Positions 21,716 to 51,529 of a stretch of DNA of 64,000 nucleotides are shown here, piece after piece. The first letter of the stretch is position 1. Each line of letters begins with the position of its first letter. The translations under genes and the position numbers were made by a program. Where the stretch lies: positions 24,897-88,896 of the forward strand of contig CBDDBE010000004.1 in assembly GCA_965225085.1 (NCBI GenBank). The letters are read 5' to 3'. The notes below the pieces were generated by a model. The model was not told the origin of the DNA. It searched no databases and saw only the letters and a list, made by a program, of their open reading frames with translations. Source of the DNA: an uncultured Candidatus Saccharibacteria bacterium. Lineage in GTDB: Bacteria; Patescibacteriota; Saccharimonadia; Saccharimonadales; EFPC-124.

Positions 21716-21717
21716 AC

Positions 21718-28378: not shown

Positions 28379-28451
28379 AGCCTTACCCCTCTCGTGCGGT
28401 CCGTGCGGTGTAGTATACTCCGCTGATGCTATTTCTGAAACAATAATTTTG

Positions 28452-28488: not shown

Positions 28489-28512
28489 CATGATGTAGCT
28501 AGCGTGATGTAT

Positions 28513-33183: not shown

Positions 33184-34830
33184 TTAGGGTTTCTTTATTT
33201 TCGCTTGAGGCTTGGTCGGGACGACAATGCTGAACGTCGAACCATGGTTGAGCCGCGATTCAAATCCTATCTGCACGCCCATCTTGGCTGCGAGCTTATG
33301 GGTAACGTACAGACCCAATCCCGTGCCGTTCGTCTCGCGGGTGCGGTAGTCCTCCGAGCGGTAGAATTTCTCGAAGATGTGCCGTTGGTCGCTTTTGCTA
33401 ATGCCGATACCTGTGTCGCGAACCCCGAGGTAGACGCCGCCTTTGGTATTGTGTGCGATAAGCGTCACGCTACCGCTGATAGTATATTTGAGGGCGTTCG
33501 TCATGAAGTTCTGCAGGATTTCCTCTAGGTAGAGGCGGCTGGCAGTCAGGTGCGGCAGCTGCGGCTGAACGTCGAGGTCGAGGGCTAGCCCTTTTAGGTG
33601 CGCATCGTCGAGGTAGTTGTGATATATCTCGCTCACGAGTCGTGAAAGGTCTATTTCCTCAACCGCACTATCAAGCCCGCGCTCGGCGCGCGACAGCGTA
33701 CTGAGGTCGTTGACCATCTTGGCCAGGTACATGATTTGGTCGTGGGCATCATCCAGCGCGTGGTTCAGGACATCTTTGGCCGCGCCGCGGTCCTGCAGGA
33801 TGCGCAGGTTGCTGATGTTTCCTTCTACGATTGCCACCGGTGTTCGCAGCTCATGGCTGACCACCGAAATGAATTCGTCGCGCTCTTCCTCAAGCGATTT
33901 TTCCTTGGTGATGTCGCGCAAGATGAAGATAAAGCCCTTGTCGCCTGCGTTCTGATAGCTCAGCTGAATGGGCGATACGTTGAGATACAGATTCATACGT
34001 TCGCCGTCATTGAATTTGTGGGTCAGATCGGTTCGTGAAAAGCTGATGTGCTTGGTGTTGGCTTGGTCTATTATGCGGATTCGCGCGTCATTCGGCGAGT
34101 ACAGGTGCAGTATGCGGTCGATTTTTTTGTTCGTCAGGCTCACGTTGGTATCTAGCAGGTTTAGCGCCGCGGCGTTATAGATTTTTATATTCCCCTGCTC
34201 GTCGGTGCCGATAACTGCATCACCCATGCTATTGACCAGCGCCAGCAGCCGTTCGCGTTGAAAGTTTTCATCGCGTTGGCTTTTGATAAGGGCAAAGCGC
34301 TCTTTATCGGTGATGATGCGGATACGCGACACCGTAAAGCCCACACTGGTGATGAACAGGCAGTACAGAATCGTCGTAGAGATATTTGCCGTATACCACC
34401 CGCTGATCGTCAGGCTGGCAACCCCTGTACCCACCAACGTCAACATGCTCAGCAGCAAACCGGTAATGCCAAAGTACGTGTCTACCGCAAGCATCAGCGC
34501 TACCCAACAGACGATAATTGGCGACTGAAAGCCGGTAATAGTCAGCACGAATATAACACTTATAATATGATACGCAATTGCGATAAGCAGATAATTCTTG
34601 CGCGTTGGCCACTGTCGAATGATGAAGTATTGTGCCGTAGCTAAGCCCAAAAAGACAATGCACAGCGACACATACCACGTATCGCCCAGGTAAAATGTAC
34701 GGTCCAGATAGCCTTGCCGCACCAACAGCCCAATTGGTGCAACGGCCAGCGGTAAAAGCGTGGCGGCTGTTCGTAGCACGCGCATGACGTCCAGAGAGTA
34801 TGCATTGCCTTCGGCGACAGAACGTTTCAT
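33184..34830 (-). CDS. sensor histidine kinase (multi-TM sensor, PAS-like, HisKA, HATPase_c)
   Basis: H-box (FISVVSHELRTP), N-box (LQNFMTNALKYT), G1 (VRDTGIGI) and G2 (GTGLGL). No response regulator adjacent. Confidence 0.85.
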   Translation of the reverse strand: MKRSVAEGNAYSLDVMRVLRTAATLLPLAVAPIGLLVRQGYLDRTFYLGDTWYVSLCIVFLGLATAQYFIIRQWPTRKNYLLIAIAYHIISVIFVLTITGFQSPIIVCWVALMLAVDTYFGITGLLLSMLTLVGTGVASLTISGWYTANISTTILYCLFITSVGFTVSRIRIITDKERFALIKSQRDENFQRERLLALVNSMGDAVIGTDEQGNIKIYNAAALNLLDTNVSLTNKKIDRILHLYSPNDARIRIIDQANTKHISFSRTDLTHKFNDGERMNLYLNVSPIQLSYQNAGDKGFIFILRDITKEKSLEEERDEFISVVSHELRTPVAIVEGNISNLRILQDRGAAKDVLNHALDDAHDQIMYLAKMVNDLSTLSRAERGLDSAVEEIDLSRLVSEIYHNYLDDAHLKGLALDLDVQPQLPHLTASRLYLEEILQNFMTNALKYTISGSVTLIAHNTKGGVYLGVRDTGIGISKSDQRHIFEKFYRSEDYRTRETNGTGLGLYVTHKLAAKMGVQIGFESRLNHGSTFSIVVPTKPQAKIKKP

Positions 34831-34956
34831 TGCCTTTCATTATGGCATAGCTGGCCGCGCGAGGCCAATTGTGCTAGTGCTTGGCGAGTGCTACAATCAG
34901 GGCGAAAGCGTGAGAGGCTTTTCGAGGAAAAATAAAAACGAGAGGAAAAAAGAGCT

Positions 34957-35415
34957 ATGTGTGAGCCTGGTCTTTTGTATGCCCGTACGCCGGAGCAAAA
35001 ACGAGATCCGTTTTTGTCGTGGCGGCGCGATGACAAGGCATTTTTTGCGTCGGGAGCGTGTCATATCCTGGCGCACATGTTTCTGTCGCTGCATCCTGAT
35101 GAGGGGTTTGAGCTGATATACATTCGTCCCAAAGATGGTCTGCCTGGCAACCATTTGTATGCCAGCAACGGCATTTGGGCGTTCGATTTTAACGGCTGGA
35201 CGCACGAGGAAGAGCTGCTGAGCATGACCCGGCAGGCGTACCAACAGGAATACGAGGGGTGGGATTTTGAACGGCTGGTCATAGGCGAAGGCTTGCTTGC
35301 CTACATCGCACGCGGCGACCATAATCTGCGGCCACCAGAGTACTTCCCTTATTTGCCGTGGGAGCGTGCCTATGCGTATATACAGAGGTATGACGCGCGG
35401 CCACCATCGGATTAG
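34957..35415 (+). CDS. hypothetical protein (152 aa)
   Basis: Protein-like composition, unlike the 294-aa antisense ORF. No recognisable domain. Confidence 0.45.
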   Translation: MCEPGLLYARTPEQKRDPFLSWRRDDKAFFASGACHILAHMFLSLHPDEGFELIYIRPKDGLPGNHLYASNGIWAFDFNGWTHEEELLSMTRQAYQQEYEGWDFERLVIGEGLLAYIARGDHNLRPPEYFPYLPWERAYAYIQRYDARPPSD

Positions 35416-35490
35416 CTTGCGGTCTGTGCGGAGGTACGGTAGAATTCTTTGGTTGGGTTCCTTTCCTACTCTCCGCAAGGAGTAAGAGAA

Positions 35491-35754
35491 ATGACTGTAA
35501 TGGAGACGCCCTCGCTGAAGGGCCGGATCATGCAGGCGTTCAAGGCTGAGCCCGAGCCGAATGGCCGCACTCTCGTTCAGACGCTGGATCTTCTCCGGAT
35601 CGGCTACGACGAGACCATCAAGCTGCAGGTCGAGCAGACGCTGCGCGAGCTGGTCGGCGACGGCCTTCTGGCCATCAACCACGTCAAGGGCGACGGCCAG
35701 ACGTACTACCGGGTCCACACGAGCGACGCGGTGTACCGGGAGGCCGACGACTGA
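35491..35754 (+). CDS. hypothetical small protein, possibly winged-helix-like
   Basis: ATG at 35491 with AAGGAG (35477-82). The LRELVGDGLLAINHVKGDGQTYYRV segment resembles a wHTH wing. A strong terminator follows. Confidence 0.4.
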   Translation: MTVMETPSLKGRIMQAFKAEPEPNGRTLVQTLDLLRIGYDETIKLQVEQTLRELVGDGLLAINHVKGDGQTYYRVHTSDAVYREADD

Positions 35755-35760
35755 CCCTTT

Positions 35761-35803
35761 GGTGCTATGCGGGCGTTTCAATACGCCCGCATAGCACCTT
35801 TTT
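35761..35803 (+). terminator. rho-independent terminator
   Basis: Perfect 15-bp stem GGTGCTATGCGGGCG/CGCCCGCATAGCACC followed by TTTTT. Confidence 0.7.
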
Positions 35804-35898
35804 CATGTCCATAGATGCATAGTATTGACATAATATACAAGAAGTTTCACAATATATAATGTTGCGCGACCGATACCCAAGAATGTGAGGGATATGAT

Positions 35899-36102
35899 AT
35901 GTCCAGACCGGTAGCGTTCGTCCTCGGAGCAGTGTTGTTCCTTGGCGGGCTCTGGCTGCTGGCCATGAATTTCACGACCAGTTCAGCTGCGTCGGCCGTG
36001 GGCCTCGCTGCGTTGATCGTGGGAGGATTGCTAATCCTGTGGGCCGTTGCGGCCCGGAGTGACCGAGGCTCGCGGCAGTCAAACGGCAACGGGAAGGTGT
36101 AA
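35899..36102 (+). CDS. small two-TM membrane protein (67 aa)
   Basis: Two hydrophobic helices (VAFVLGAVLFLGGLWLLAM and VGLAALIVGGLLILWAVAA) and a basic C-terminal tail. Confidence 0.4.
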   Translation: MSRPVAFVLGAVLFLGGLWLLAMNFTTSSAASAVGLAALIVGGLLILWAVAARSDRGSRQSNGNGKV

Positions 36103-36332
36103 AAACCTGCCCACACGGGGAAACGGCCTCCCCCTCTGGCCCTTATCAGGCCAGAAAAATCCCTTCAGCGCGAAAGCGTTTGCGGGGACGGCCGTTTTTC
36201 ATTGCAAAAATATGGAACATAAGCATTGCATCTGCGGGCAACTATTGCTACCATGTGGCCTGTGCTAATGCCTTACTTGATAAGAAAATAATTGCACTTA
36301 TACTAAGAAATATGGAGAGAGGGTAAAATAGC

Positions 36333-36431
36333 ATGTCGCGATTGCCGCAACCGGGTTCTGACAACGGCGTCTGGGGGGATGTCCTCAATGATTTCTTGTT
36401 GCAAGAACACACTAGTGCTGGAGCGCTCAAG
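36333..36431 (+). repeat. conserved 33-aa N-terminal module, copy 2
   Basis: MSRLPQPGSDNGVWGDVLNDFLLQEHTSAGALK. Similarity to copy 1 continues to about residue 65 (KIRTDGT...KPSxGxPKxDLASxVQTSL). Confidence 0.85.
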
Positions 36432-37718
36432 ATTCGTACGGACGGTACGTTGAGCTCATATTATCAAAAACCAAGTAGCGGCATCCCAAAAAGCGATCTA
36501 GCTTCCGCCGTTCAAACGAGCCTCAACACAGCCTCTGCTGTGTATGATGTCAAGGCGTATGGTGCAACAGGTGATGGCTCGACGAATGATACGTCGGCTA
36601 TTCAGTCGGCTATCAACGCGGCAGCGGGCGGTGGCGTCGTGCTATTCCCTACCGGCACCTACCTTATTACTTCTACGCTAACTGTTAACCATGACAGCAT
36701 TGTGCTGACAGGCTCTGGTGCGTCGTCAATCATCAAGGTCGCCGGATCGGCGCTTGGCATCGATGTGATCGTCATTGGTGATGGTGCAGCCACGCGGGCG
36801 CATTGTGGCGTACGGAACTTGCGCATTGTGGCAGCCAGCCAAAAGACAGCAGGGGTTGGCGTTCACCTCAACAGGTGTTTCAAGATTTGGCTCCAGAACA
36901 TCCAGATAGAAAACCAATTTCGTGCGCTTCAGTTCACCAACACGACCGAAGTGTGGCTGAACAGCTCGGATGTGCGTGACACGACCGAACACGGGCTACT
37001 GATAGATAACGACCCCCTAAGCGGTTACGATTGGTATATTAATGACTGTGTTTTCGATAATCCGAATGTCACGAACACAGGCAGCGGCATCCATTGGGAT
37101 GGCGGCGAGACGTTGGTGGTGAACGGCCTTGATTTGTTACGTTTTACGACTGGGCTCTACATCAATCCGAGCGCTGGCCGTGAATCGCGATTCGCCTTCC
37201 TGAACAACATGATTATGGACACCAGCAGAGATAACAACGTCCACATTTCTAACACCGGATCGGGCAATACTGTCGGCCTGACATTTACGAATTGTTGGTC
37301 GGGCACGGCTGCCAACTATGGCGTACTGATTGATCGTCCGGGCGGCGGCCTAGTGCAGGGTGTGCGATGGGTTGGCGGCAAAGTGTTCCACAACGGATTG
37401 GCAGGCTTTCGGTTGGCTGGCGGGCAGGACGTGCACATATCGGACTGCGACATTATCGCCAATTCACAGACTGTTTCGGCTGCTCGGCATGGCGTAGAGG
37501 TTGGCGGCGGCGTTGGCGAGTTTTCGGTCCAGAACTGTCGGATAGGCGGCGGGTTCGAGCAGGGCGACACGCAGGGCTTTGCCATCCATATCGATGCTGG
37601 CGCGTCCGATCACTATATCATCACCGGCAATGACTGCCATGGCAACAACAACTCACCCAAGATCGACGATAACGGCACGGGCACCAATAAAATCGTCTCG
37701 AGCAACCTTCAGGCATAG
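36333..37718 (+). CDS. beta-helix (pectate-lyase-superfamily/tailspike-like) protein, family copy 2
   Basis: Carries the conserved N-module. YDVKAYGATGDGSTNDTSAIQSAINAAAGGGVVLFPTGTYLI (Pectate_lyase_3-like) is followed by parallel beta-helix repeats. No signal peptide. Confidence 0.75.
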   Translation: MSRLPQPGSDNGVWGDVLNDFLLQEHTSAGALKIRTDGTLSSYYQKPSSGIPKSDLASAVQTSLNTASAVYDVKAYGATGDGSTNDTSAIQSAINAAAGGGVVLFPTGTYLITSTLTVNHDSIVLTGSGASSIIKVAGSALGIDVIVIGDGAATRAHCGVRNLRIVAASQKTAGVGVHLNRCFKIWLQNIQIENQFRALQFTNTTEVWLNSSDVRDTTEHGLLIDNDPLSGYDWYINDCVFDNPNVTNTGSGIHWDGGETLVVNGLDLLRFTTGLYINPSAGRESRFAFLNNMIMDTSRDNNVHISNTGSGNTVGLTFTNCWSGTAANYGVLIDRPGGGLVQGVRWVGGKVFHNGLAGFRLAGGQDVHISDCDIIANSQTVSAARHGVEVGGGVGEFSVQNCRIGGGFEQGDTQGFAIHIDAGASDHYIITGNDCHGNNNSPKIDDNGTGTNKIVSSNLQA

Positions 37719-37815
37719 ATTTGTCGTGTTGTGTAGGGTCGCGCTTGATTGTTTAGCAATACTATTTTATGATTGATCTGTTTTGTTCGATTCACCTTAA
37801 CATCTGGAGGCCTAC

Positions 37816-39525
37816 GTGGATTGGCGGAAACGATTGTCCGGCCAAGGTGCTCGTCGCGCTGGCAGGTCAAAGTTCAGATGGACTCCATTCCGTGGCCGGC
37901 CTACGCAGGGGTTTCTACCGAGACAACCGGATCATTCTGCAACAGGAGTGATGCAACGGCTTACCCCTGAGGAGCTGGACTTTTTTGATCGCGGAGGCAT
38001 GGAGGTTCCGCGCCGCAAGAAGCGCGTGGTTAGCCGTACGTTCATCGCGATTCTTAGCCGCTGGCGATACTTGCTTTCGACGTCGGTAGCCCTGATGCTG
38101 GTGGCGTCTCTGTTTGGTGTTGGGCTGACCGCGGTGCGTGACGCTTCCAACAACACTACACGACCACCGACGCAAAGCGCTCCGACGCTCCTTGAGCTTA
38201 ATCGCTCGATCGAGCTAGGTCAGGCTTACATCGCGGCACTGTACAAGCCCCTCCCTGGTGGCGAGGCCGTACAGAGCGAAGCGTCTGGTGTTCCCCTCCG
38301 AGTGTACTTCCCAGGCCAGAGGGCTTGGGTGCTGCTGGGAGAGGACAGGCGCTGCGCCTCGCGCTGCGACACGACGACGAGCATCGACAACACGCACGAA
38401 AGCGCAACGAGTGACGATTATGTCGTTACGTTCAACGCGCCAAACGCGCCCGATGCCCTGAAGGTGCGCGTCCAGATCAACTGGACGTTCAGTAAGACGC
38501 AGTATCAGATTCTGCTCACGCCAGTCGGTGTCAAGTTGCCAGCCGAACTGTGGCTGGACACGACCAAGCTGGAGAGCTACGCGCCCGGGGCGAACCCGGT
38601 CACGAAGCACGTGTTCGAGGACGGCAACCTGTCACAGCTGAAAATGCTGCGATTCACCACCCGGCATGCCACCCAAGAGGCCTATCTGTACTGGAGCACG
38701 GTCGGGCATGACCCGGCCAGGGCTGCAGCGCTGAAGAAGTTCCTTGAGGCGGATGGCTACGTCGCTGGGTACGACCTGCGCGCGCCGCTGTTTGGCGCCA
38801 ACGCTAGTCTACCTGACGATCTGCCGGTCAACCCGAAGGCTTACGCAGACTGCGACCACATCGCCACCGGCGGTCCGGACTGGTACGCCTATCGGAGCCG
38901 GGTCTGCCTGTACGAGAGCATGTACCTCACGAGCGGCGACCGTGATCCGTTCTTGCAGGCGTACGATGCTCTGACGATCCTGGTGAAGTATAAGGATCCG
39001 AAGCATGCTCTGCCTGAGTGGAGCTGGTGGGTGCAGGGCGGAACGCCGGCGGATGTCTTCACACACTTGCGTGGCCAGTGGAACCGCACTGGCCAGGGCG
39101 TACCAAAGTGTACACCATTCAAGTGTGAAGAGCTCAGTAGCATCCGGACCTCGGCGTATGGCGCACTGGCTACGCAGTTGGGATATGGCTATCATGACCC
39201 CGGCGCGCAAGCATCTGCTGACGCCGCCGCCAAGGTTATCATCCAGACGCAGATTCCTGCGAATGGCGCCATCCCCATGGGGGACGGCACGACGTATATT
39301 CGGCCTGGGCAGGCTGGCGGGTTCATGACCGCCTGGACTTCCAGCCTTAGGTTCACACAACCCAGCACGCCGAAGTTCCCGCTGGGGGTGGCCTTGTGGC
39401 TGAAGGACGGCACACTCATGCCGCCCGAGTACCGGGGCGTCGTTGCTAGCAATAGCGAAACGTCCCTGGATGCCCTCGGCTTCCTGATGATGTATAGGTG
39501 TCAGAAGTATCATCAGGGGTGCTAG
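37816..39525 (+). CDS. hypothetical N-terminally membrane-anchored protein with large Cys-containing exterior domain
   Basis: GTG at 37816 with GGAGG (37806-10), or ATG at 37951 with AGGAG. One TM segment (LLSTSVALMLVASLFGVGLTAV). GC-rich with no recognisable domain. The C-terminal part may be alpha/alpha-toroid-like, but this is a guess. Confidence 0.55.
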   Translation: MDWRKRLSGQGARRAGRSKFRWTPFRGRPTQGFLPRQPDHSATGVMQRLTPEELDFFDRGGMEVPRRKKRVVSRTFIAILSRWRYLLSTSVALMLVASLFGVGLTAVRDASNNTTRPPTQSAPTLLELNRSIELGQAYIAALYKPLPGGEAVQSEASGVPLRVYFPGQRAWVLLGEDRRCASRCDTTTSIDNTHESATSDDYVVTFNAPNAPDALKVRVQINWTFSKTQYQILLTPVGVKLPAELWLDTTKLESYAPGANPVTKHVFEDGNLSQLKMLRFTTRHATQEAYLYWSTVGHDPARAAALKKFLEADGYVAGYDLRAPLFGANASLPDDLPVNPKAYADCDHIATGGPDWYAYRSRVCLYESMYLTSGDRDPFLQAYDALTILVKYKDPKHALPEWSWWVQGGTPADVFTHLRGQWNRTGQGVPKCTPFKCEELSSIRTSAYGALATQLGYGYHDPGAQASADAAAKVIIQTQIPANGAIPMGDGTTYIRPGQAGGFMTAWTSSLRFTQPSTPKFPLGVALWLKDGTLMPPEYRGVVASNSETSLDALGFLMMYRCQKYHQGC

Positions 39526-39673
39526 ATCAAGACAGCTGCACGCGGCGGCAGGCTATGGGAAACCTAGCGCCTGCCGCCCGTGTGGAAGATAGAAATTATT
39601 TGCTTAAATCATGAGTGGGTTGTATGATTTGTATGCTCAAGGTGTTTCTGATCTTCACGAGAGGAGGCCGCCT

Positions 39674-39913
39674 ATGGCAGAAGATGATTGGCGCCACCAC
39701 GCGGCGTGCCGTGGCGTGGACCCTGAGTTGTTCTTTCCCATAGGCAACACCGGTCCGTCGGCTCTCCAGATCGAGGATGCTAAGGCTGTATGTCGCCGGT
39801 GCGACGTCGTCGATCAGTGTCTCGAATGGGCCGTCGACAACGGAATACCTTATGGTGTGTGGGGCGGTATGAGCGAGGACGAACGCCGCGCGCTCAGAGG
39901 AAAGGCTGCCTAG
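39674..39913 (+). CDS. WhiB family transcriptional regulator (WhiB1/WblE-like)
   Basis: GAGGAGG RBS 6 nt upstream. Four Cys in the C-x27-C-x2-C-x5-C arrangement (AACRGVDPELFFP...VCRRCDVVDQC), a GVWGG turn and a basic tail. Strongly resembles mycobacterial WhiB1 from memory. Confidence 0.85.
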   Translation: MAEDDWRHHAACRGVDPELFFPIGNTGPSALQIEDAKAVCRRCDVVDQCLEWAVDNGIPYGVWGGMSEDERRALRGKAA

Positions 39914-39937
39914 CTTGACTGCCATGTACTGAGCTGA

Positions 39938-39981
39938 GCCTTTCCGGTTGCCGCATATCTTGCGGCCCGGAAGGGCTTTTT
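39938..39981 (+). terminator. rho-independent terminator
   Basis: Long hairpin spanning 39938-39976 (GCCTTTCCGG...CCGGAAGGGC) followed by TTTTT. Confidence 0.7.
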
Positions 39982-40103
39982 ACATAATGTGGCAAGCTAA
40001 GACTAGGTATGATAAGGGCCCCGTAGTCGATTTGGCTGCGGGGCCCAGAGTGGTTCATTCGAGGGTGTGTCCCAAATTTTGGACTGGATTTGCGTAGTAG
40101 TGC

Positions 40104-40397
40104 TCACCCGCCATGCTCCTTCTCGTAGCGCTCCTTCGCTGATTCCAGGAGTTGGCGCCAGCTTTTGACGTGAGCCCTTCGTCGAAGCAATGCTCGGCGC
40201 TCACGTTCGGTCATGCCACCCCACACGCCGTATTCCACCCGGTTGTCCAACGCGTCGGCCAAGCATTCCGTCCGCACGGGGCAGCCGTTACAGACAGTTT
40301 TGGCCCTGTTCTGTGCTGCGCCCTTCACGAACAGCTCGTCGGGGTCCTTGCCACGACATGCCGCCACGACGGTCCAGTCTTCAACCCATCCCATCAT
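40104..40397 (-). CDS. WhiB family transcriptional regulator (WhiB4/WblA-like)
   Basis: AACRGKDPDELFVKGAAQ...VCNGCPVRTEC...YGVWGGMTERERRALL. Carries the Cys4 pattern and GVWGG turn. The C-terminal KSWRQLLE resembles WhiB4 from memory. Confidence 0.85.
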   Translation of the reverse strand: MMGWVEDWTVVAACRGKDPDELFVKGAAQNRAKTVCNGCPVRTECLADALDNRVEYGVWGGMTERERRALLRRRAHVKSWRQLLESAKERYEKEHGG

Positions 40398-40539
40398 CCT
40401 CTCCCAACTCCGTGGGCTTTGCTCGTAAGGCTCAGTTTGACCTTGCGTGGATTACACTATGGCATGCCTTGTGTACTTTTGCAATTCACACAGGCCAAAC
40501 ACTAGAATCACGTTCTTGCTTATGATAGGCTGCCTATAT

Positions 40540-40638
40540 ATGGCGCGATTACCAACCGTCAACGGCGATAATAACGTATGGGGTAGCATTCTCAACGATT
40601 TTTTGTCGATCGAGCATAATGCTGACGGTACGCTCAAG
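40540..40638 (+). repeat. conserved 33-aa N-terminal module, copy 3
   Basis: MARLPTVNGDNNVWGSILNDFLSIEHNADGTLK. Confidence 0.85.
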
Positions 40639-42300
40639 AAGTCGGGACTTATTACCGGGGCCGAGCAAGCAGCTAATAAGGGCCTTGCCAATGGCTATGC
40701 GCCCTTAGACGGCGCGGGTAGAGTGCCGAGTTCGTATTTGGGGCTGGGAAGCGCAGCAGCAGCCAATATCGATTCAACCAGTAGCGACATTCAACCAGTT
40801 GCGCTTACGGCCACAGCTGGCTCAACTGGTAAGGTGTCTGATGCTGGGCATGTGCATGTTGGCGTGGCGATAGATAGCCTGATGATAAATGTGAAGGATC
40901 ATGGGGCGACTGGTAACGGCACAACGGATGATGCGAGCGCCCTGCAAGCCATCATCAATAGCAGCCCGAGCGGCGCAATTATATTTTTCCCACCGGGCAC
41001 GTACCTTATTGGTTCAACACTTCAGCTCAAAGCGACACGTTCGTACGTCGGTGCGGGCCGTGGTAGTATCATCAAACAAAAAGCCAGCACCACGATGAAT
41101 TTTATGATAGATATCCTGTCGAGCGAGACAATTCCGCGTACTGATATCCTCATCGAGAACCTCTACCTTGATGGCAATCGTACTAACAATACAGTCTATA
41201 CTGGCGGGTCGGGTTTTACTCAGAACAACGGCATCAGGCTATACAACTGTAACGACTGTACGCTGCGCAATGTAACGGTGCGGCATACTGGTCGTGATGG
41301 CATTGTGTTCGACGGCGCGGGTGGCGATTACAACCATACCACCGCCACGTGCCATCTCTACGACGTATGGTTGTACGACAATGCTCGATATGGCATCAGC
41401 ATGGAAGCCAATAGCTCAGACAATCATATATACGATTCGGACCTTGGTTTCAACGATTATGGCGCCGTCAACCTGATAAGTGGCTCAAACTCCGTGAACG
41501 GCTCGGCGTTGTGGGGAACGAAGTTGAGCTACGGCGTGCAGATTGGTGCTTCGGCCAACTTGATTCGAAATTGTCAGATCGAGGGCAATGCGCAATATGG
41601 CGTGTTTATCACCGAGTTCGGCAACCATACGCAAATCATCGGCAACAAAATATACGATAACGGCGACTCGGCGCGTAGCTATGACGGCGTGTACGTGCAA
41701 GGGTCTGTAGCCAATCCGGTTGTTGGTACGACGGTACTAGCGAATAGCTTTTTCTCGGAGCTACTATTTGGTGGACCCGGGCCAGGCAATCTGCCGCGAC
41801 ACGCTGTAACGTTCGACACTCATACCAGCGGCTCGATTGTTATAGGCAATCAGCATTATCAGCTCGATTCCGATGGCTCCATTACCAGTACCGTATTGCC
41901 AATCTTCGGTCTCAAAGCAGGTGACGTGTTCGAGGGCCGCCGCTGGGTAACTTCCGGCGCGCTGCCAAGCAACGGTATACCAGGCGAGCAAATCTATCTC
42001 ACAGACACGGGTAATACGGCTACGTGGTCGACTTACCGCTCCCAATGGGAGACTGTCGTTACGTCGACATATGGTGCAGCTGGCGGCACATACAGTGTTA
42101 GTAGCGGCGCTACGTCACTAGCGGTGGTCTTTGGTCATAATCGTTTTGATACATCCTATACGCCTATCATTGCTCCGTCCTGGAACACCACCTTTTGGAT
42201 TAGCGCCAAAGCGTCTACTGGCTTTACCGTTAATTTTGGCACCGCGCCTGGTTCAACTCAGTCACTCGATTGGGGAATAGTCCGGCAGTATGGCTCGTAG
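40540..42300 (+). CDS. beta-helix (pectate-lyase-superfamily/tailspike-like) protein, family copy 3
   Basis: ATG at 40540 (MARLPTV) preferred over the listed 40447. INVKDHGATGNGTTDDASALQAIINSSPSGAIIFFPPGTYLI is followed by beta-helix repeats and a distinct C-terminal beta domain. Confidence 0.75.
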   Translation: MARLPTVNGDNNVWGSILNDFLSIEHNADGTLKKSGLITGAEQAANKGLANGYAPLDGAGRVPSSYLGLGSAAAANIDSTSSDIQPVALTATAGSTGKVSDAGHVHVGVAIDSLMINVKDHGATGNGTTDDASALQAIINSSPSGAIIFFPPGTYLIGSTLQLKATRSYVGAGRGSIIKQKASTTMNFMIDILSSETIPRTDILIENLYLDGNRTNNTVYTGGSGFTQNNGIRLYNCNDCTLRNVTVRHTGRDGIVFDGAGGDYNHTTATCHLYDVWLYDNARYGISMEANSSDNHIYDSDLGFNDYGAVNLISGSNSVNGSALWGTKLSYGVQIGASANLIRNCQIEGNAQYGVFITEFGNHTQIIGNKIYDNGDSARSYDGVYVQGSVANPVVGTTVLANSFFSELLFGGPGPGNLPRHAVTFDTHTSGSIVIGNQHYQLDSDGSITSTVLPIFGLKAGDVFEGRRWVTSGALPSNGIPGEQIYLTDTGNTATWSTYRSQWETVVTSTYGAAGGTYSVSSGATSLAVVFGHNRFDTSYTPIIAPSWNTTFWISAKASTGFTVNFGTAPGSTQSLDWGIVRQYGS

Positions 42301-42391
42301 ACCTCGCGCAAGTTGTTTGGCATACTCGTGCTAAACGAGGTATAGTATCTGTACCGGAGTACCTTACCTCGAGAGTTTCGGAGTTCGACAA

Positions 42392-42619
42392 ATGAGTGGT
42401 GTGCGACTGCTGGTTGAAGGCACTGACGTCACGTACGAGGACTTGCTCGAGATGCTCAGGCCCGGTGAGACTCTCGTAGCTGCGTGGCAAGTCCCGGGCG
42501 CTGAGTCCCCGGCAAATCGTCGAGTCGTCGCTGGTAAGGGCATATTCGCGCTCATCCGAGGGAAGGCCGCGAGCGGCGTCTATCGGGAGCTGAGCTTCTT
42601 CGCCAGCGGCGAAGAATAA
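42392..42619 (+). CDS. hypothetical small protein (75 aa)
   Basis: GC-rich ORF between family copy 3 and a strong same-strand terminator. No recognisable domain. Confidence 0.35.
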   Translation: MSGVRLLVEGTDVTYEDLLEMLRPGETLVAAWQVPGAESPANRRVVAGKGIFALIRGKAASGVYRELSFFASGEE

Positions 42620-42650
42620 TTGCCTCGGGATAGCCCGACAGTGCAGTACC

Positions 42651-42695
42651 GACCCTATGCCGCATACGTTCGTGCGGCGTAGGGTCATTTAATTT
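42651..42695 (+). terminator. rho-independent terminator
   Basis: 14-bp stem GACCCTATGCCGCA/TGCGGCGTAGGGTC (42651-42686) followed by a T-rich ATTTAATTT. Confidence 0.6.
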
Positions 42696-42767
42696 GGACA
42701 GCATCAACGTTGCCCTACGCCGAATGACCGTATACTATGGGAATCAGTATCAAAAACAAAAGGCAAC

Positions 42768-43601
42768 ATGTCAGAGATGCCAGATATACATACTATCGCT
42801 GCTTCCACGGCTAAGTCGGGCCGCTCAAGGAAACCTCATGGTCGCTATGCTGCATTGTTGGTTGGCGTAGTGAGTTTTGTGTCGAATGTGACGGCTATAA
42901 CAGGGCTGATCCTTAGCCATGCCGATATTATTGTGATTACGGCAGCTGTCCTGGCAACCCTCAGTGGACTGTACTTACTCCTGAAGCGGTGGGGTAAGCC
43001 GACGGATTGGGCAACACTGCTTGCCGTCGGTATTATCGTGGCTGGTAGCGTTATGTTGGCACTCAGCCTCAAGGCGTACAATGACAATACTCCGACGTCA
43101 ACTCCGGCTGGTCAAAACTCCTCGCCAAGTAGCCCTGGCGTTAGTAGCACGGGTGGCGGGGGTACGCCGGTCAAGAAAAACAGCACCCATACAGTGGTTT
43201 TCGAAAAGAATTTTAAGCTAACCAATAACGACGGTCTGGAGCTGGATGACGAGCAAGGCACAATCCTGTTACAGCAAAGTTCGCCCCAGCCACCAAGTGA
43301 TCTGTACTTCAGCAGCTTCCCCTATCTGGCTGTCAGCAAGCAGAAGTTTTATCAGTATCAGGCCCCCTTGCAGTCAACGGGCGATCAGGACAAAGACCAA
43401 TACAATGCCTGCACCGACCTCATTGCAAATAGCCAGCTGGGCTCGAGCACCCTTAGCCAATCTCAAGTTTCACCGGGCAAGCAGTATTGCATCACGACTA
43501 CGCAGGGGCGAGTTGCGCTTATTACGCTACAAGAGATGATCGACAGTGGGTATGGTTCAGGCAAAAACGATATGACATTTGCAGTCAAGCTTTGGAATTA
43601 A
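42768..43601 (+). CDS. hypothetical membrane protein with exterior C-terminal domain
   Basis: Three hydrophobic segments, a Ser/Pro/Thr/Gly linker, and a beta-rich C-terminal domain. Its stop overlaps the stop of the convergent gene (TTAA). Confidence 0.5.
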   Translation: MSEMPDIHTIAASTAKSGRSRKPHGRYAALLVGVVSFVSNVTAITGLILSHADIIVITAAVLATLSGLYLLLKRWGKPTDWATLLAVGIIVAGSVMLALSLKAYNDNTPTSTPAGQNSSPSSPGVSSTGGGGTPVKKNSTHTVVFEKNFKLTNNDGLELDDEQGTILLQQSSPQPPSDLYFSSFPYLAVSKQKFYQYQAPLQSTGDQDKDQYNACTDLIANSQLGSSTLSQSQVSPGKQYCITTTQGRVALITLQEMIDSGYGSGKNDMTFAVKLWN

Positions 43602-44290
43602 GCCGCTATGTAGGAGGCTTGCCGGGCCCGAATCAGTACCGGGTACACGTTGCCAATGGCGGGCCCCCAGGGCACCATATTGTGCGCAATGAGTGATTCG
43701 CCTGTCGCCGTCAAATCCACGACGGCGTCGATAGGTTTGTCGCCATAATCGAGATAGGGGTATAGCTCGGTGCCGCCGGCTGTTGTGACAATCTCGACAT
43801 CTGGCCGGCCGATACTTTCGAAATATCTTGATGTGATAGTGGGATACTGCGTTGCGATTCGCTCAATGTCTTGCAGCCGATTCAGTTTGCTGCCAGACGG
43901 CGTTGCCAGCACGAGAGACCAGGCGTGGCGACCACGATATGAAGCGACTATGTCGACTTTTCCCTCGGCGTTGTCTTCGATCACTCGATCGGTGCCGACT
44001 ACCGCCATGTCGACAGCTCCTTCTATCACGAGTTTGCAGATGCTTTTGTTGCGTGCATATAGGAAGCCTGTTTTGCCATCGTCCGAAACGCGCACGGCTA
44101 CTTTCCCTTCGGGCGATGGAGGCGCACAGATGCCCAGTGCGTCCAACAGAATAGCGCGGGCTATGTCAGTTAGCGCGCCGTCTTTTTGGATTGCTATTTT
44201 GGTTGATGTGGCTCGAAAGCGTTCGAGCAGTTTTGCAGCTTCTGTCGCCCTCTTGGGCGAGAGCCGAGGTTCGGTGTTGGGATACAGCAT
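43598..44290 (-). CDS. hisG: ATP phosphoribosyltransferase-like protein (short HisG form with ~30-aa N-terminal extension)
   Basis: KIAIQKDG, GAVDMAVVGTDRVIE, IATQYP..T..YF and DAVVDLTATGESLIAHNM align by eye with short-form HisG motifs. AAGGAGG RBS upstream. Confidence 0.65.
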   Translation of the reverse strand: MLYPNTEPRLSPKRATEAAKLLERFRATSTKIAIQKDGALTDIARAILLDALGICAPPSPEGKVAVRVSDDGKTGFLYARNKSICKLVIEGAVDMAVVGTDRVIEDNAEGKVDIVASYRGRHAWSLVLATPSGSKLNRLQDIERIATQYPTITSRYFESIGRPDVEIVTTAGGTELYPYLDYGDKPIDAVVDLTATGESLIAHNMVPWGPAIGNVYPVLIRARQASYIAA

Positions 44291-44522
44291 ATGTGCCTCC
44301 TTAGATAATAAATTAATAGATTTATTCGTCTAAGGAACGAGAGGCCAATCAAAAAAGGACCTCCCGCGGTCCCATCCTTATTCCTAAGAAATATTACTAT
44401 CTCTAGGCACTCGGCACCGGCTCCACGGACTACGCGACATCGGCTGCTATATTTTACGGTTTAGCTTCCGTAGTGCATTTGACACTCAGCTCGCCCCATC
44501 GTGACTGGGACTCAGATGCTTT
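44291..44522 (-). promoter_or_regulatory. T-box leader candidate (tRNA-His-type) upstream of the hisG-like gene
   Basis: The minus strand reads AAUAAGGAUGGGACCGCG (core 44377-44365). This matches the remembered T-box consensus AAUNNGGGUGGNACCGCG at 14 of 15 specified positions. The UGGG bulge fits a C73 discriminator (tRNA-His). A GGACC/GGUCC helix plus U6 (44372-44351) follows. A CCCA-GUCACGA-UGGG hairpin carries a CAC codon. Confidence 0.55.
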
Positions 44523-44662: not shown

Positions 44663-45973
44663 CTAGATGGTGGATAGCCGGTCTGCGAGCTCGCGCGTGC
44701 TGAGCGTTGACGACTCGCCCGTCCGCATGTCCTTTAGCGTCACAACCCCCGCGCTAGCTTCTTGCGCGCCGATGAGTACGACATAGTCGAATCTCATGCG
44801 GTCAGCATAGCGTAGCTTTTTGGCGATTTTGTCCTGTTCTGTGTACAGCACTGTGGGAATGCCTGTCTCGCGCAGGAGCGCTGCCACGGCCAGGCCATCC
44901 CCGATTTGCTGCACCGTGAGTGGCATAACGACGACCTTGGCGGGGCTTTGGGATTTGGGCTTGATGACTCCCGCCTCGCAAAGTTTGTAGAACAGCCTGC
45001 TCAGTCCGATCGATATCCCCACGCCCGGAAGTGACGTATTCGTGTAGTAGCCGGCGAGGTCGTCGTAACGGCCGCCGGAGCACACACTACCCACTTCAGG
45101 ATGTTCGTTTAGCACGGTTTCGTAAACTGTCCCTGTGTAGTAGTCCAGCCCGCGAGCGATCTTTAGGTCGATCTTGAATCGCGATTCAGGAACACCCATG
45201 GCGCGTAGTGCTTGCACCAGAGCTTCCAATTGCGCGACGCCATCATCGAATTGTTCGGATTGTACGCCAACTTGCTTGAGCCGAGCGATCATTTCGTCAT
45301 TGGTGCCGGTGATCGCTGTGAACTCAAGGACGCTTGTGATTTGCTGGTCGTTGAGGCCCGCAGCTTTCAGCTCGTCGATCAGCTCGCCTCGAGCGATCTT
45401 CTCCATCTTGTCGATGATCCGCAGCACGCCAGTGGATGACGTCTGCAGACCAAGGCCTTCGAAGAAGCCGCTGAGCACCATGCGATTGTTGATTCGGATG
45501 GTAAACTCGCCGAAGTTGAACCGCTCGAAAATCTCGTTGATGATCGCCGGGAATTCGGCGTCGACGATTGGGCTGTTTGACCCGATAACATCGATGTCGC
45601 ACTGGTAAAACTCGCGGAAACGGCCCGCCTGGGCACGCTCGGCACGGTAAACCTTGCCGATGGCGTAGCGGCGAAACGGAAAGGCAAGCTGACTTTCGTG
45701 CTCGGCGACATAGCGCGCTAGTGGCACAGTCAGGTCGAATCTCATGCTGAGGTCGTTTCGTCCATGCTCGAAACGATAGATCTGTTTGCCGGTTTCGCCT
45801 GTTTCCTTAGCAAGCAGCACACTTGATATTTCGAGCGTGGGTGTGTCCAGCGGCGCGAAGCCGTATCTCTCGTAGACTTCACGGATAATATCCATGAGCC
45901 GGTTGAACTCGATCTGCTCACTCGGCAGATATTCGCCGAACCCACTGGGACGACGCGGGGTGACTATTGCCAT
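44663..45973 (-). CDS. hisS: histidine--tRNA ligase
   Basis: Class II motifs (YRAERAQAGRFREFYQCD, GGRYDDL, ARGLDYYTG) and a C-terminal anticodon-binding domain. This makes it a true HisRS rather than HisZ. Confidence 0.9.
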   Translation of the reverse strand: MAIVTPRRPSGFGEYLPSEQIEFNRLMDIIREVYERYGFAPLDTPTLEISSVLLAKETGETGKQIYRFEHGRNDLSMRFDLTVPLARYVAEHESQLAFPFRRYAIGKVYRAERAQAGRFREFYQCDIDVIGSNSPIVDAEFPAIINEIFERFNFGEFTIRINNRMVLSGFFEGLGLQTSSTGVLRIIDKMEKIARGELIDELKAAGLNDQQITSVLEFTAITGTNDEMIARLKQVGVQSEQFDDGVAQLEALVQALRAMGVPESRFKIDLKIARGLDYYTGTVYETVLNEHPEVGSVCSGGRYDDLAGYYTNTSLPGVGISIGLSRLFYKLCEAGVIKPKSQSPAKVVVMPLTVQQIGDGLAVAALLRETGIPTVLYTEQDKIAKKLRYADRMRFDYVVLIGAQEASAGVVTLKDMRTGESSTLSTRELADRLSTI

Positions 45974-48388: not shown

Positions 48389-49891
48389 TTACTGTATAAC
48401 GAAATCGTCATCTTGGTCAAGGCGACGAGCTATCTCGTTAACGTAGGGGTAGTAGATGTCATCTTCGGAAAAGTAAGGAGCAGCATCTCGGGTGTGCTTG
48501 TAGACGCGCGCAGTGCCTTTGCCTAGCTTCATGCCTTCGCGCAACCTGAAGTCAACCGCTTGCGAGGCAACCAGCAGCTCGATAGCCAGCACATTGGTGA
48601 CATTCTGAATGATGGTTCGGGCCTTGCGGGCGCCGATTGTACCCATGGACACCAGGTCTTCCACGTTTGCCGATGTTGGCACCGAATCGACGGACGACGG
48701 ATGGGCCAGTACTTTATTTTCCGACACCAGTGACGCGGTGGTATATTGTAGGATCATAAAGCCCGAATTCAGCCCCCCTTTCTCGGTCAGGAATGGAGGG
48801 AGCCCGTGGTTGGTCGCCCCATCTAGTAGCGAGGCAATACGCCTGTCCGCGATATTTGCCAGCTCGCTGATGGCAATGCCGAGCGTGTCCATGGCAATTG
48901 CCACTGGCTCGCCATGAAAGTTCCCGCCGGACACGACTTTTATTTTGTCCCCGTCGGTAAAGATGAGCGGGTTGTCGGTGACGCTGTTGATTTCTGTCGT
49001 CACAACTTTCTTCACGTATGCAAAGGCTTCACGTACGGCGCCGTGGATTTGCGGCATGCAGCGAATGGAGTACTGGTCTTGAACCCGGGTGTCGTCGACC
49101 ATGGTGCTGCCCGCTAGGAGGCTGCGGAGGTGTGCTGCCACGGCGATTTGCCCTTCGTGCGCCTTCAGGCGATGCACGTCGGCGTCGAATGCTTTGGTCG
49201 TAGCGCGCAGCGCCTCGGCCGATAGTGCGCCGCTGCAGTCGGCTACCTCTAGCAGCTTTTGGGCGCGGTGCAGGCATACCGATGCGATCGAGGTCATGCA
49301 AGCGGTGTTGTTGATGAGCGCTAGGCCTTCTTTGGCCTGAAGGGTGATGGGCTTTATCCCGGCTTTCGACATAGCCTGTGCGCCAGTGTAGATGTCGCCC
49401 TTGTATTCCGCCTCGCCTTTGCCGATCAGCACGAGTATCAAGTGTGCGCTTGGCGCGAGGTCGCCACTGGAACCAACTGAGCCCTTCTCGGGGATGACGG
49501 GGTGAACACCCTTGTTCAGCATGTCGATAAGAGTCGTGATCACCTCGACGCGGACACCGGAGTGTCCTTTTGACAGGTAATTGGCCATGAGGCACATCAT
49601 GCCGCGCACCACCTCCTCATCCAGCGGCGTGCCAACGCCGACGGCATGGGACTTAATGAGGTTTTCTTGCAGTTTGGCCACGTCATGCTTCGAGATAGCC
49701 GTGTCTTTAAACGCGCCAAACCCTGTTGTGACGCCGTAGATGATGTCGTTGTTGGCGATTGCGTTCTCGATAGCTGTGCGAGTTTTTACCACCTTCGCTT
49801 TGGCTTTGGCCCCAAGCGCTACCCTCTCGTGGTCGATTGCTACCTTGCAAATATCTTCGAAGTTCAAATCCTGGTTGTTGATAGTGAGCAT
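48389..49891 (-). CDS. hutH: histidine ammonia-lyase (MIO-dependent aromatic amino-acid lyase family)
   Basis: YGVTTGFG, the GSVGSSGDLAP MIO region, NTAC, and overall 500-aa HAL architecture. Confidence 0.85.
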   Translation of the reverse strand: MLTINNQDLNFEDICKVAIDHERVALGAKAKAKVVKTRTAIENAIANNDIIYGVTTGFGAFKDTAISKHDVAKLQENLIKSHAVGVGTPLDEEVVRGMMCLMANYLSKGHSGVRVEVITTLIDMLNKGVHPVIPEKGSVGSSGDLAPSAHLILVLIGKGEAEYKGDIYTGAQAMSKAGIKPITLQAKEGLALINNTACMTSIASVCLHRAQKLLEVADCSGALSAEALRATTKAFDADVHRLKAHEGQIAVAAHLRSLLAGSTMVDDTRVQDQYSIRCMPQIHGAVREAFAYVKKVVTTEINSVTDNPLIFTDGDKIKVVSGGNFHGEPVAIAMDTLGIAISELANIADRRIASLLDGATNHGLPPFLTEKGGLNSGFMILQYTTASLVSENKVLAHPSSVDSVPTSANVEDLVSMGTIGARKARTIIQNVTNVLAIELLVASQAVDFRLREGMKLGKGTARVYKHTRDAAPYFSEDDIYYPYVNEIARRLDQDDDFVIQ

Positions 49892-50481: not shown

Positions 50482-51450
50482 TTAGCGCCCCTTGTAGTAC
50501 CCCTCGGGGCCCACCAGCGCAACGATCGCGGTAGTGTTGGCGAGCAGGTCGGCCGGCGTGTGTACGGCATGGCCATTCAAGAAGTTGAGCGTCACCTCAC
50601 GGTTCAGCCTGTCGTAGCTGCTCGGGATCATCGGTGTGATCTCGCCTATGACCTTTTTGCCCGTGCGCCGGTCGATATACCGCACGATGCCGGTCTTGGT
50701 ATAGACCACGCAATCGCCATGATCGAAGCCCAGCAGGATATACTCGATGTATGCATCGCGGTCATTGTGGAGTCGCGTGCCTTCGCACCTGAAATCCACA
50801 CCATTACCACGCGCTATATGACCACTGACGACGTAGTGGTCATAGCTGTCGAGTTCGCGTCGTGCCTCCAATCTTCCGTCCAGCAGGGCAGACAGGTAAT
50901 CTGTGTCGTGGACACATTTGTCGGCTAGGAAGCTTCGATCTTGCTTCCATCCCTGGCTGGGCTTGGGATAGATGGAGCTGAGCCCGACTCGCTTCAACGG
51001 TCCGAACCGTCCCTCGAGAGTCTTCAGATTGGCTCTGACCCAGCCGTATGGCAGATCGGCGATCGTGCTGCGCCGCTGGTGACAGCTGGCGACGGGCAGT
51101 TGCTTAGCCTGGGCTGATCGCAGCGCATCCTTTACTCTCTGTAGGCCGACAGCGTCGATTGCCAGAGGCTTCTCGCACAACACCGGAATCCCGGCCTCGA
51201 CAACCAGTGCGAGTTGCTCCGGGTGCAGCTGGTCGAGCGAGCCAATTATGATCCCTTCGGGCCGCAAGGCCAGGAGTGACTCGGGTGTCTCCAGCCTCGG
51301 CGGTGCATAGCCGAGGACCCTACGGGCGGCCATAGCGCTGTCGGGTGACGGGTCGCAGATACCCGCGACGCGAACGCCTCGCAGGAATGGGAGGTGCGCA
51401 CTGACGACGTGTCCACCACAGCCCCAAACCGCTATCGTTTTGATTGGCAT
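50482..51450 (-). CDS. Gfo/Idh/MocA family oxidoreductase
   Basis: ATG at 51450 (MPIKTIAVWGCGGH). N-terminal Rossmann fold and the EKP motif (VLCEKPLA). Confidence 0.8.
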   Translation of the reverse strand: MPIKTIAVWGCGGHVVSAHLPFLRGVRVAGICDPSPDSAMAARRVLGYAPPRLETPESLLALRPEGIIIGSLDQLHPEQLALVVEAGIPVLCEKPLAIDAVGLQRVKDALRSAQAKQLPVASCHQRRSTIADLPYGWVRANLKTLEGRFGPLKRVGLSSIYPKPSQGWKQDRSFLADKCVHDTDYLSALLDGRLEARRELDSYDHYVVSGHIARGNGVDFRCEGTRLHNDRDAYIEYILLGFDHGDCVVYTKTGIVRYIDRRTGKKVIGEITPMIPSSYDRLNREVTLNFLNGHAVHTPADLLANTTAIVALVGPEGYYKGR

Positions 51451-51529
51451 TATCAATCCCTTCGGTCGGATGTTGCCCCGGATAGTATACAACATTTGCC
51501 ATCGACAGCTGCTAGGCTATGATAAAAAG

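Follow-up and report, generated by a model that had tools for sequence, protein, structure and literature searches.

A Pair of WhiB-Like Genes of Apparent Actinobacterial Ancestry on a Candidatus Saccharibacteria Contig

The Two Genes and Their Family

We analyzed a stretch of 64,000 nucleotides (hereafter the window) from contig CBDDBE010000004.1 of an uncultured Candidatus Saccharibacteria bacterium, with the focus on two small genes of the WhiB-like (Wbl) family. The first gene, WBL1 (39674..39913, plus strand), encodes 79 amino acids (aa) and is assigned to the WhiB1/WblE class, and the second, WBL4 (40104..40397, minus strand), encodes 97 aa and is assigned to the WhiB4/WblA class. They are convergent (tail to tail) with a spacer of 190 bp, and lie exactly where an earlier note, made by reading the sequence, had reported two convergent open reading frames (ORFs). 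A second ATG of WBL4 at 40394 is an alternative start, which would give a protein of 96 aa and is used by the public gene call.

Both proteins matched the Pfam profile PF02467 (Whib) over profile positions 1-65 of 65, with scores well above the cut-off of 23.6 bits (WBL1, E = 3.9e-28, 98.2 bits; WBL4, E = 1e-25, 90.5 bits). The possibility, raised in the earlier note, that the two ORFs are not Wbl proteins is thus excluded. A Wbl profile run against all 1,040 ORF segments of the window picked out WBL1 and WBL4 alone (E = 5e-45 and 3e-44), with the next best segment at 0.7; therefore, the family match is far beyond chance. No further Wbl gene, which the earlier note had proposed to look for, was found among these segments. 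At E ≤ 0.01, no NCBIfam model matched either protein.

The four Fe-S cysteines and the G[VI]WGG turn that had been noticed in both ORFs are indeed there. In WBL1 the ligands are Cys12/40/43/49 with the spacing C-x27-C-x2-C-x5-C, and they align with the ligands of WhiB1; in WBL4 they are Cys14/36/39/45 and align with the ligands of WhiB4. The turn reads GVWGG in both cases (G61-G65 in WBL1, G57-G61 in WBL4). A structural paper of 2026 describes an aromatic patch, AP1-4, which docks on region 4 of sigma A and mediates binding to its His516-Pro517 site; the patch is W3, F17, F18 and W60 in WhiB1, and AP2-3 is L45-F46 in WhiB4 (PMC13013590). This patch is complete in WBL1 (W6, F20, F21, W63) and also in WBL4 (W8, L22, F23, W59), where AP2-3 is the class-typical Leu-Phe. 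Judged from these residues, the biochemical core of cluster ligands, turn and sigma-docking patch is complete in both proteins. AlphaFold2 (AF2) models had low confidence (mean predicted local distance difference test, pLDDT, of 52.8 and 51.7) with the helices in the expected order, and the Wbl fold can be regarded as safe from the 61-64% identity of both proteins to solved structures.

Class Assignment and the Missing C-Terminal Tails

Among solved structures, the best relative of WBL1 was WhiB1 of M. tuberculosis (E = 1.8e-31, 64% identity over 75 residues), and the other classes were much more distant (WhiB3, 1.9e-16; WhiB2-type, 7e-16; WhiB4, 1.3e-11; WhiB7, 5e-6). For WBL4 the best solved relative was WhiB4 (E = 2.7e-31, 61% identity), followed by WhiB1 (3e-17), and the class motifs DPDELFV.GAAQ and CLADALDN are present. 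These comparisons bear out the earlier reading of the first ORF as WhiB1-like and of the second as WhiB4-like. Because the two proteins are only 50% identical to each other, the pair is not a local duplication.

The main structural deviation lies at the C-termini. WBL1 ends with ...RRALRGKAA and is without the basic tail KRRxARxRxR, which continues in all 60 non-truncated relatives that we inspected. WBL4 is without a tail of about 30 residues (...IPRQR..SFGRA) that its closest relatives have, so that its length is 97 aa against 122-138 aa. Thus, the basic C-terminus that the earlier note ascribed to both proteins is found in WBL4, with 11 Lys or Arg residues after the turn, but not in WBL1. 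The C-terminal tail of WhiB1 is the DNA-binding part of that protein.

On all molecular criteria that can be tested, WBL1 is an ordinary WhiB1/WblE protein and WBL4 an ordinary WblA/WhiB4 protein. Chandra and Chater have reviewed these classes, which are present in most actinomycetes; in Streptomyces, WblA controls how aerial hyphae switch to sporulation, and in Corynebacterium the ortholog WhcA has a damping effect on the oxidative-stress response (PMC4255298). What is unexpected is the phylum that carries the pair, and the tail-less forms are a modest structural deviation.

Assignment of the Contig to Saccharibacteria

The DnaB protein encoded 30 kb to the left of the pair (8839-10233) was 80-92% identical to proteins of Saccharibacteria or Saccharimonadales. 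All of its named matches came from metagenome-assembled genomes (MAGs) of Candidatus Saccharibacteria or Saccharimonadales except two. One of the two is labelled Woesebacteria, another group of the candidate phyla radiation (CPR), and the other (P0308) is labelled Pedobacter at NCBI, yet its nr name starts with 'Candidatus Saccharibacte…'. On the other side of the pair, 4 kb to the right of WBL4, lies the gene of histidyl-tRNA synthetase (HisRS; 44663-45973, minus strand). A search of 185,579 species-representative genomes gave 12 HisRS loci with 61-72% identity, 11 of which are labelled Saccharibacteria, Saccharimonas, Nanosynbacter or Microsaccharimonas. The twelfth (L008, JBLMYW010000079.1; 69% identity) is a 14-kb contig in a bin named 'Acidobacteriota bacterium'. 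Both L008 and P0308 are likely to represent contigs of Saccharibacteria that were binned or labelled wrongly in the public databases. The next HisRS matches after Saccharibacteria were Clostridia at about 52%, and no actinobacterium was found among the 80 best loci. A comparison of L11 with solved ribosome structures gave no phylum-level signal.

Because DnaB and HisRS flank the pair on both sides, the contig is assigned by protein similarity to Saccharibacteria (CPR/Patescibacteria) and not to Actinomycetota. In the NCBI taxonomy, Saccharibacteria are Candidatus Saccharimonadota and Catenulispora belongs to Actinomycetota. The housekeeping genes of the window include secE, nusG, rplK, rplA, rplJ, rplL, dnaB, dnaX, recR, cysS, thyA and hisS. 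The earlier note had remarked that much of the window does not look actinobacterial, and the short NusG (181 aa) and SecE (91 aa) and the GC content of about 0.54 agree with this remark. It had also left a choice between an atypical actinobacterium and lateral acquisition, for which it proposed a placement of the genome; the placement by DnaB, together with HisRS, decides for acquisition.

Nearest Relatives of the Two Proteins

In a search of 5.8 billion protein clusters, the best matches of WBL4 were 87-90% identical, and those with a name were WblA of Catenulispora; Streptomyces, Streptacidiphilus and Actinospica followed at 76-79%. An alignment of the core gave 89-90% identity to Catenulispora and 78-79% to the others, and WBL4 has residues specific to Catenulispora (TVVAACRG, KTVC, SWRQ.LESAKE.YE). 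The best matches of WBL1 were 80-82% identical and unnamed, and the named ones (Beutenbergiaceae, Actinomadura, Streptomyces and Streptosporangiaceae) reached only 73-77%; therefore, the donor of WBL1 is less clear than that of WBL4, and by these identities the two donors need not be the same. Beyond the window's own entry, none of the matches listed exceeded 90% for WBL4 or 82% for WBL1. The clusters that hold the exact sequences have 1 and 2 members, and each member is from the source organism. At NCBI the window's own proteins are nameless; this suggests that the MAG is unannotated, and the pair may have gone unnoticed for that reason.

All close relatives that could be traced to DNA lie on contigs with 66-74% GC. 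In those whose neighbors were examined, wblA stands near a class-A penicillin-binding protein gene (ponA), YqeY, ArsA-type ATPases and crp (P0044, P0063 and P0023), and whiB1 stands near pdtaS, a diacylglycerol (DAG) kinase gene and sigma/anti-sigma genes (P0144). These four loci were considered as further CPR carriers and were ruled out by their high GC and canonical actinobacterial synteny. The window contains none of the canonical neighbor genes of wblA or whiB1, and in no actinobacterial or metagenomic locus that we examined does a WBL4-type gene stand beside one of the WhiB1 class. Thus, the tail-to-tail pair is a derived arrangement of two bare genes.

A scan of JGI metagenomes with WBL4 detected only loci of actinobacterial type (GC 0.59-0.73) and loci of low GC (0.43-0.51). 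Three of the low-GC loci reach dnaB, and their DnaB is only 44-46% identical to that of the window. Two tandem WblA-like genes, about 600-2,200 bp apart and 53-62% identical to WBL4, were also seen on several metagenome contigs with 60-67% GC (L122, L129, L130, L132, L133, L139, L141, L150, L151 and L155); from their sequences they look like a local duplication in an uncultured, presumably actinobacterial lineage.

Wbl proteins of isolated phages were at best 55% identical to WBL1 and 68% identical to WBL4. In IMG/VR, identity reached 52% for WBL4 and, in a partial match, 80% for WBL1; the seven loci checked there as the closest to WBL1 (74-80%) lie in DNA with 67-73% GC. The best cellular matches, at 82% and 90%, exceed those of isolated phages, and both genes are of cellular and not of phage type, as in one of the two alternatives of the earlier note. 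Genes of WhiB1 type and of WblA type also occur on hundreds of actinobacterial plasmids (best identity 73-77%), and every named genus in the plasmid summary lists is actinobacterial. Because so many actinobacterial plasmids carry such genes, plasmids are a plausible vehicle of the transfer. Taken together, the comparisons show an actinobacterial origin of both genes. Saccharibacteria in culture are parasites of Actinobacteria, and the two genes were almost certainly taken from a host of this kind.

Contiguity and Base Composition

Two Logan assemblies from separate runs were 100% identical to 33875-44377 and 39703-44380 of the window. Both junctions are reproduced in these independent per-run assemblies, and the wbl region is not chimeric.

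The GC content at third codon positions (GC3) is 0.65 for WBL1 and 0.71 for WBL4, and it ranges from 0.38 to 0.72 in the genes of the window. For the nearest actinobacterial genes (at least 77% protein identity), GC3 is 0.85-0.96 and the DNA has 66-74% GC. Nucleotide identity to the nearest genes is 74-78% for WBL4 and 65-74% for WBL1. With such low nucleotide identity and a window-like GC3, the wbl genes are not stray actinobacterial reads. The 2.6 kb at 37816-40397, which we call the island, has a tetranucleotide correlation of r = 0.72 with the window, inside the scatter of the window (mean 0.77, standard deviation 0.10), and its correlation with actinobacterial DNA is slightly higher (0.77-0.82). 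We take this lean toward actinobacterial DNA to mean that amelioration is incomplete or that the donor had a moderate GC content. Repeats, tRNA genes and integrases were sought around the island, and no convincing scar of a mobile element was found.

Signals of Expression and Constraint

A Shine-Dalgarno sequence precedes each wbl gene. For WBL1, the ribosome-binding site AGGAGG was read at 39662..39667 (plus strand), 6 nt before the ATG, and for this reason the start at 39674 is favored over an ATG at 39611, which would give a longer ORF and is unlikely to be the true start. A candidate promoter of sigma-70 type for WBL1 was recognized by eye at 39600..39628 on the plus strand (TTGCTT, 17 nt, TATGAT), and it scores below the threshold of a consensus scan. 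Another promoter-like site (40479-40508) lies within the 139 bp between WBL4 and the divergent tailspike-like gene.

Downstream of WBL1, 23 nt after its stop codon, there is a hairpin like an intrinsic terminator (39936..39981, plus strand) with a stem of 12 + 6 bp followed by TTTTT, and a terminator scan also detected its inner part. A probable terminator of WBL4 (40016..40046, minus strand) is found 58 nt 3' of its stop codon, with a GC-rich stem of 13 bp and a weak U-tract; this hairpin folds on both strands. The spacer RNA as a whole folds with −99.6 kcal/mol (z = −7.0 versus shuffled controls; z = −5.3 for the minus strand). Two separate hairpins in the spacer indicate that WBL1 and WBL4 are independent transcription units.

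We also compared the proportions of synonymous (pS) and nonsynonymous (pN) differences. Between WBL4 and the closest WblA genes, pS was 0.65-0.76, which is saturated, and pN was 0.09-0.10; the ratio of nonsynonymous to synonymous substitution rates (dN/dS), where calculable, was 0.03-0.07. The corresponding values for WBL1 were 0.62-0.89 for pS, 0.13-0.21 for pN and, where calculable, 0.10-0.19 for dN/dS. Such values point to strong purifying constraint on both proteins, and by the same comparison the transfer is not recent from any sampled lineage.

Neighboring Genes and Other Features of the Window

Directly upstream of WBL1 there is an ORF of 569 aa (37816..39525, plus strand; GC 0.61) with an N-terminal membrane anchor. 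It had no match in Pfam or PHROG, and searches of GTDB genomes and of JGI metagenomes gave no close relative. Its family is rare, with 156 representatives among 1.84 billion proteins in an exhaustive HMMER search, and so mixed in composition that no clear signal on its origin emerged. Given the raised GC that they share, this ORF may have been acquired together with the wbl genes, although this is uncertain.

The island is bracketed by two tailspike-like beta-helix genes. The left one (36333..37718, plus strand; 461 aa) matched Pfam PF12708 and PHROG tail-spike families, and the right one (40537..42300, plus strand; 587 aa), which is divergent from WBL4, matched PF12708, PF13229, PF05048 and PHROG. 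They belong to four large paralogs spread over 11.9-54.7 kb of the contig, the other two being at 11881-13737 (plus strand) and at 53151-54749 (minus strand; BppL_N and DUF5907 matches). All four have an N-terminus of about 35 residues in common (consensus M-x-RLP-x-x-G-x-DN-x-x-WG-x-x-LNDFL-x-x-EH-x-x-x-G-x-LK), which is followed by a beta-helix like those of pectate lyases and phage tailspikes in three of them, not in 53151-54749. By their sequences the paralogs look like surface depolymerases or adhesins of an epibiont. In the loci around hisS of the 12 other Saccharibacteria (up to about 21 kb each), no beta-helix paralog was seen, and within 10 kb of hisS there were no wbl genes, 569-aa ORF or beta-helix paralogs. 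Because synteny around hisS is not conserved, no 'empty site' can be defined.

Some further features of the window deserve mention. The pairs secE-nusG, rplK-rplA and rplJ-rplL (17655-29333) are separated by inserted genes, with about 6.5 kb including thyA between rplA and rplJ, and rpoB does not follow rplL. There is an L10 leader at 18794-18939 (59 bits), and the rplA ORF, when read from its first start codon, has a long N-terminal extension of low complexity. A short-form hisG (ATP phosphoribosyltransferase; 43598-44290, minus strand) lies directly downstream of hisS, and no his genes other than these two were found in the window. Saccharibacteria are usually described as lacking amino-acid biosynthesis, and hisG is thus odd there. 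A hisG-like gene with 31-34% identity was also present at most 5 kb from hisS in two other Saccharibacteria MAGs (L004, 4600-5103; L009, 4827-5348).

The gene content is unusually rich for CPR (48389-49891, minus strand; 58067-59107, plus strand; 50482-53019), including a histidine/aromatic ammonia-lyase (E = 7e-195), a DUF3182 protein, a GFO/IDH/MocA oxidoreductase, a ketopantoate-reductase-like protein and an HxlR regulator. Such a content suggests that this soil Saccharibacterium has a comparatively large set of genes, or that more of them were acquired. The real compositional outlier of the window is 60001-63000, with a GC content of 0.46-0.47 and a tetranucleotide correlation of only r = 0.27 with the rest. 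It carries an Orn/DAP/Arg decarboxylase (60484-61659), and a beta-eliminating lyase with a GC3 of 0.38 lies at 59456-60487. The region 60001-63000 probably came from a low-GC source as another foreign island.

Proposed Explanation and Alternatives

We think it rather probable that two cellular Wbl genes were gained horizontally, were domesticated, and are now used on the bacterium's own RNA polymerase as modulators that respond to O2, NO or redox state. A mid-GC Saccharibacterium (TM7) chromosome would have gained one gene of the WhiB1/WblE class and one of the WhiB4/WblA class from Actinomycetota, with Catenulispora as the nearest sampled relatives of the latter. Only the bare coding sequences would have been kept, and the pair would now reside between lineage-specific surface-protein genes, each gene having a ribosome-binding site, a terminator hairpin and a host-like codon composition of its own. 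Each protein may bind a [4Fe-4S] cluster, and its aromatic patch may dock on the His-Pro site that region 4 carries in the primary sigma factor of the Saccharibacterium itself, whereby part of transcription would become responsive to O2, NO or redox state. Region 4 ends with the ...KLRHPSR... motif, whose His-Pro is generally conserved in primary sigma factors, also far outside Actinobacteria. Because both proteins are without their C-terminal tails, they probably rely on docking to sigma; they would work chiefly as modulators while bound to sigma, and would not bind DNA autonomously. Their targets may include the adjacent host-interaction genes.

Several points weigh against this explanation. 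Part or much of the low dN/dS was built up along actinobacterial branches, so that the ratio by itself is no proof of selection inside the Saccharibacterium. The databases contain relatives whose DnaB is 88-92% identical, and despite this neither a second Saccharibacterium nor any other CPR genome with the wbl pair was found in the searches; the pair may be an acquisition of a narrow lineage and possibly dispensable. No sigma-70 gene was found in the window or in the fetched Saccharibacteria DNA, and we assume that region 4 of the endogenous sigma would be compatible, since the KLRHPSR motif is generally conserved in primary sigma factors. In addition, the AF2 models of both proteins are of low confidence.

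A different use of the same proteins is conceivable, although we consider it unlikely: tail-less copies of WhiB1 and WblA could be delivered into an actinobacterial host as mimicry effectors and act there in a dominant-negative way on region 4 of sigma A, which would disturb the stress response, development or antibiotic production of the host, analogous to the Wbl proteins of actinophages. Cultured Saccharibacteria are described as obligate epibionts of Actinobacteria (PMC12369343), and phage Wbl proteins bind the sigma A of the host in the same His516-dependent mode (PMC13013590). Both proteins are still 80-90% identical to actinobacterial orthologs and retain all residues that contact sigma A, exactly the C-terminal tails are gone in both, and the pair stands among tailspike-like beta-helix genes that resemble factors of host-surface interaction. 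However, no Sec, Tat or other recognizable export signal is found in the N-termini (MAEDDW..., MMGWVEDW...), Saccharibacteria are not known to inject proteins into their hosts, and an Fe-S protein that is labile to oxygen is poorly suited for secretion. That a cellular parasite has copied and trimmed two host Fe-S regulators in order to interfere with sigma-A-dependent transcription of its host seems to us quite doubtful. If it were true, it would be the first regulator mimicry by a CPR epibiont, with Catenulispora-like actinomycetes as the host lineage, and the affected functions would be the stress and essential functions controlled by WhiB1 and the development and antibiotic production controlled by WblA.

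The genes could also be neutral or decaying passengers without function, which arrived, for instance, through natural transformation with DNA of lysed hosts, or on an actinobacterial plasmid, many of which carry genes of WhiB1 or WblA type. Their confinement to one lineage in everything searched agrees with this, and the C-terminal truncations could be a first step of decay. However, both ORFs are intact and no ligand or motif is missing, each has a good ribosome-binding site and its own terminator, two different Wbl classes are kept side by side, and the largely ameliorated composition implies that the genes have resided for a long time in a streamlined genome, from which useless DNA is normally purged; we regard the passenger status as quite improbable. 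A prophage or mobile element of the Saccharibacterium with phage-type Wbl genes could be suspected from the flanking ORFs, which match phage tail-spike families, since Wbl genes are common in actinophages. This is very unlikely, because no capsid, terminase, portal, integrase or tRNA gene is nearby, there are no flanking repeats, and the tailspike-like genes form a four-member chromosomal family interspersed with housekeeping genes. Moreover, identity to phage Wbl proteins is far lower (no more than 55% and 68% for isolated phages, 52% for WBL4 in IMG/VR), and the checked IMG/VR loci nearest to WBL1 (74-80%) lie in DNA of 67-73% GC. The metagenomic source, the slightly raised GC of the island (0.60-0.61) and its tetranucleotide correlation (0.77-0.82 with actinobacterial DNA against 0.72 with the window) could be taken as signs of actinobacterial reads joined into a Saccharibacteria contig during assembly or binning. 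This artefact is largely refuted, and only a slight chance is left for it: both junctions recur with 100% identity in two independent single-run assemblies, no sampled actinobacterial gene differs from them by less than 22-35% of nucleotides, the GC3 of the two genes is 0.65-0.72 and that of the nearest actinobacterial genes 0.85-0.96, no actinobacterial neighbor gene stands alongside, and the flanking genes have paralogs elsewhere on the contig. Finally, the presence of Wbl genes, and of wblA in metagenome loci with 43-51% GC, might suggest an atypical reduced actinobacterium with native Wbl genes. DnaB and HisRS refute this, and its probability is close to nil: DnaB is 80-92% identical to Saccharibacterial proteins but only 44-46% identical to the DnaB beside low-GC wblA, the 80 best HisRS loci include no actinobacterial one, and canonical synteny is absent.

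If the proteins are functional in the domesticated role that we prefer, the Wbl-sigma mechanism would be transplantable into a distant phylum. It would then become testable what restricts the Wbl family, whether mycothiol, features of sigma A or partner proteins. The Catenulispora-like ancestry of the WblA-class gene offers a molecular fingerprint of the host on which this uncultured Saccharibacterium of soil lives, and the pair makes it conceivable that epibionts use stolen regulators to manipulate the regulation of their hosts. It also means that WhiB, which is sometimes taken as a marker of actinobacterial hosts for metagenomic phages or contigs, is not an absolute one.

Comparison with Known Systems

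The Wbl family was still stated to be exclusive to Actinobacteria and actinobacteriophages in the structural paper of 2026 (PMC13013590). This restriction is a descriptive generalization on the family and not a molecular criterion, and the present pair lies outside it. Full-text searches of the searchable literature library found no paper that links WhiB or Wbl to Saccharibacteria, TM7, Patescibacteria or CPR genomes. We cannot claim a first case, as the CPR genomes were not surveyed in full with a Wbl profile.

WBL1 shares the Cys spacing, the GVWGG turn, the W/F/F/W patch and the MSEDERRAL helix with WhiB1 of M. tuberculosis and WblE of Streptomyces (PDB 6ONO, 5OAY). Unlike them, it has no C-terminal basic tail (KRRNARTKARTGV-type) and ends with ...LRGKAA, it has IPY in place of QD[AS] before the turn, and it is found in a Saccharibacterium without pdtaS, DAG kinase or sigma genes as neighbors. 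With WblA of Streptomyces and Catenulispora, WhiB4, and WhcA of Corynebacterium (PDB 7F7N), WBL4 shares the L-F patch and an SW-helix after a basic stretch. However, it has Lys for the nearly invariant Gln in ELFVQG, is shorter because the tail is missing, shows no synteny with ponA, ArsA-ATPase or crp, and is in a non-actinobacterial host.

The Wbl genes of actinophages (e.g., WhiB of mycobacteriophage TM4 and cluster-specific families) likewise stand outside the host chromosome, in a genome that exploits an actinobacterial host. In contrast to them, the genes of the window are of cellular type, and their carrier is a cellular epibiont and not a virus. A further parallel is host-to-epibiont transfer in Saccharibacteria and CPR, in which a gene of clear actinobacterial ancestry is likewise found in a Saccharibacterium; here, however, the cargo is a pair of transcription factors that are regarded as a specific hallmark of the host phylum.

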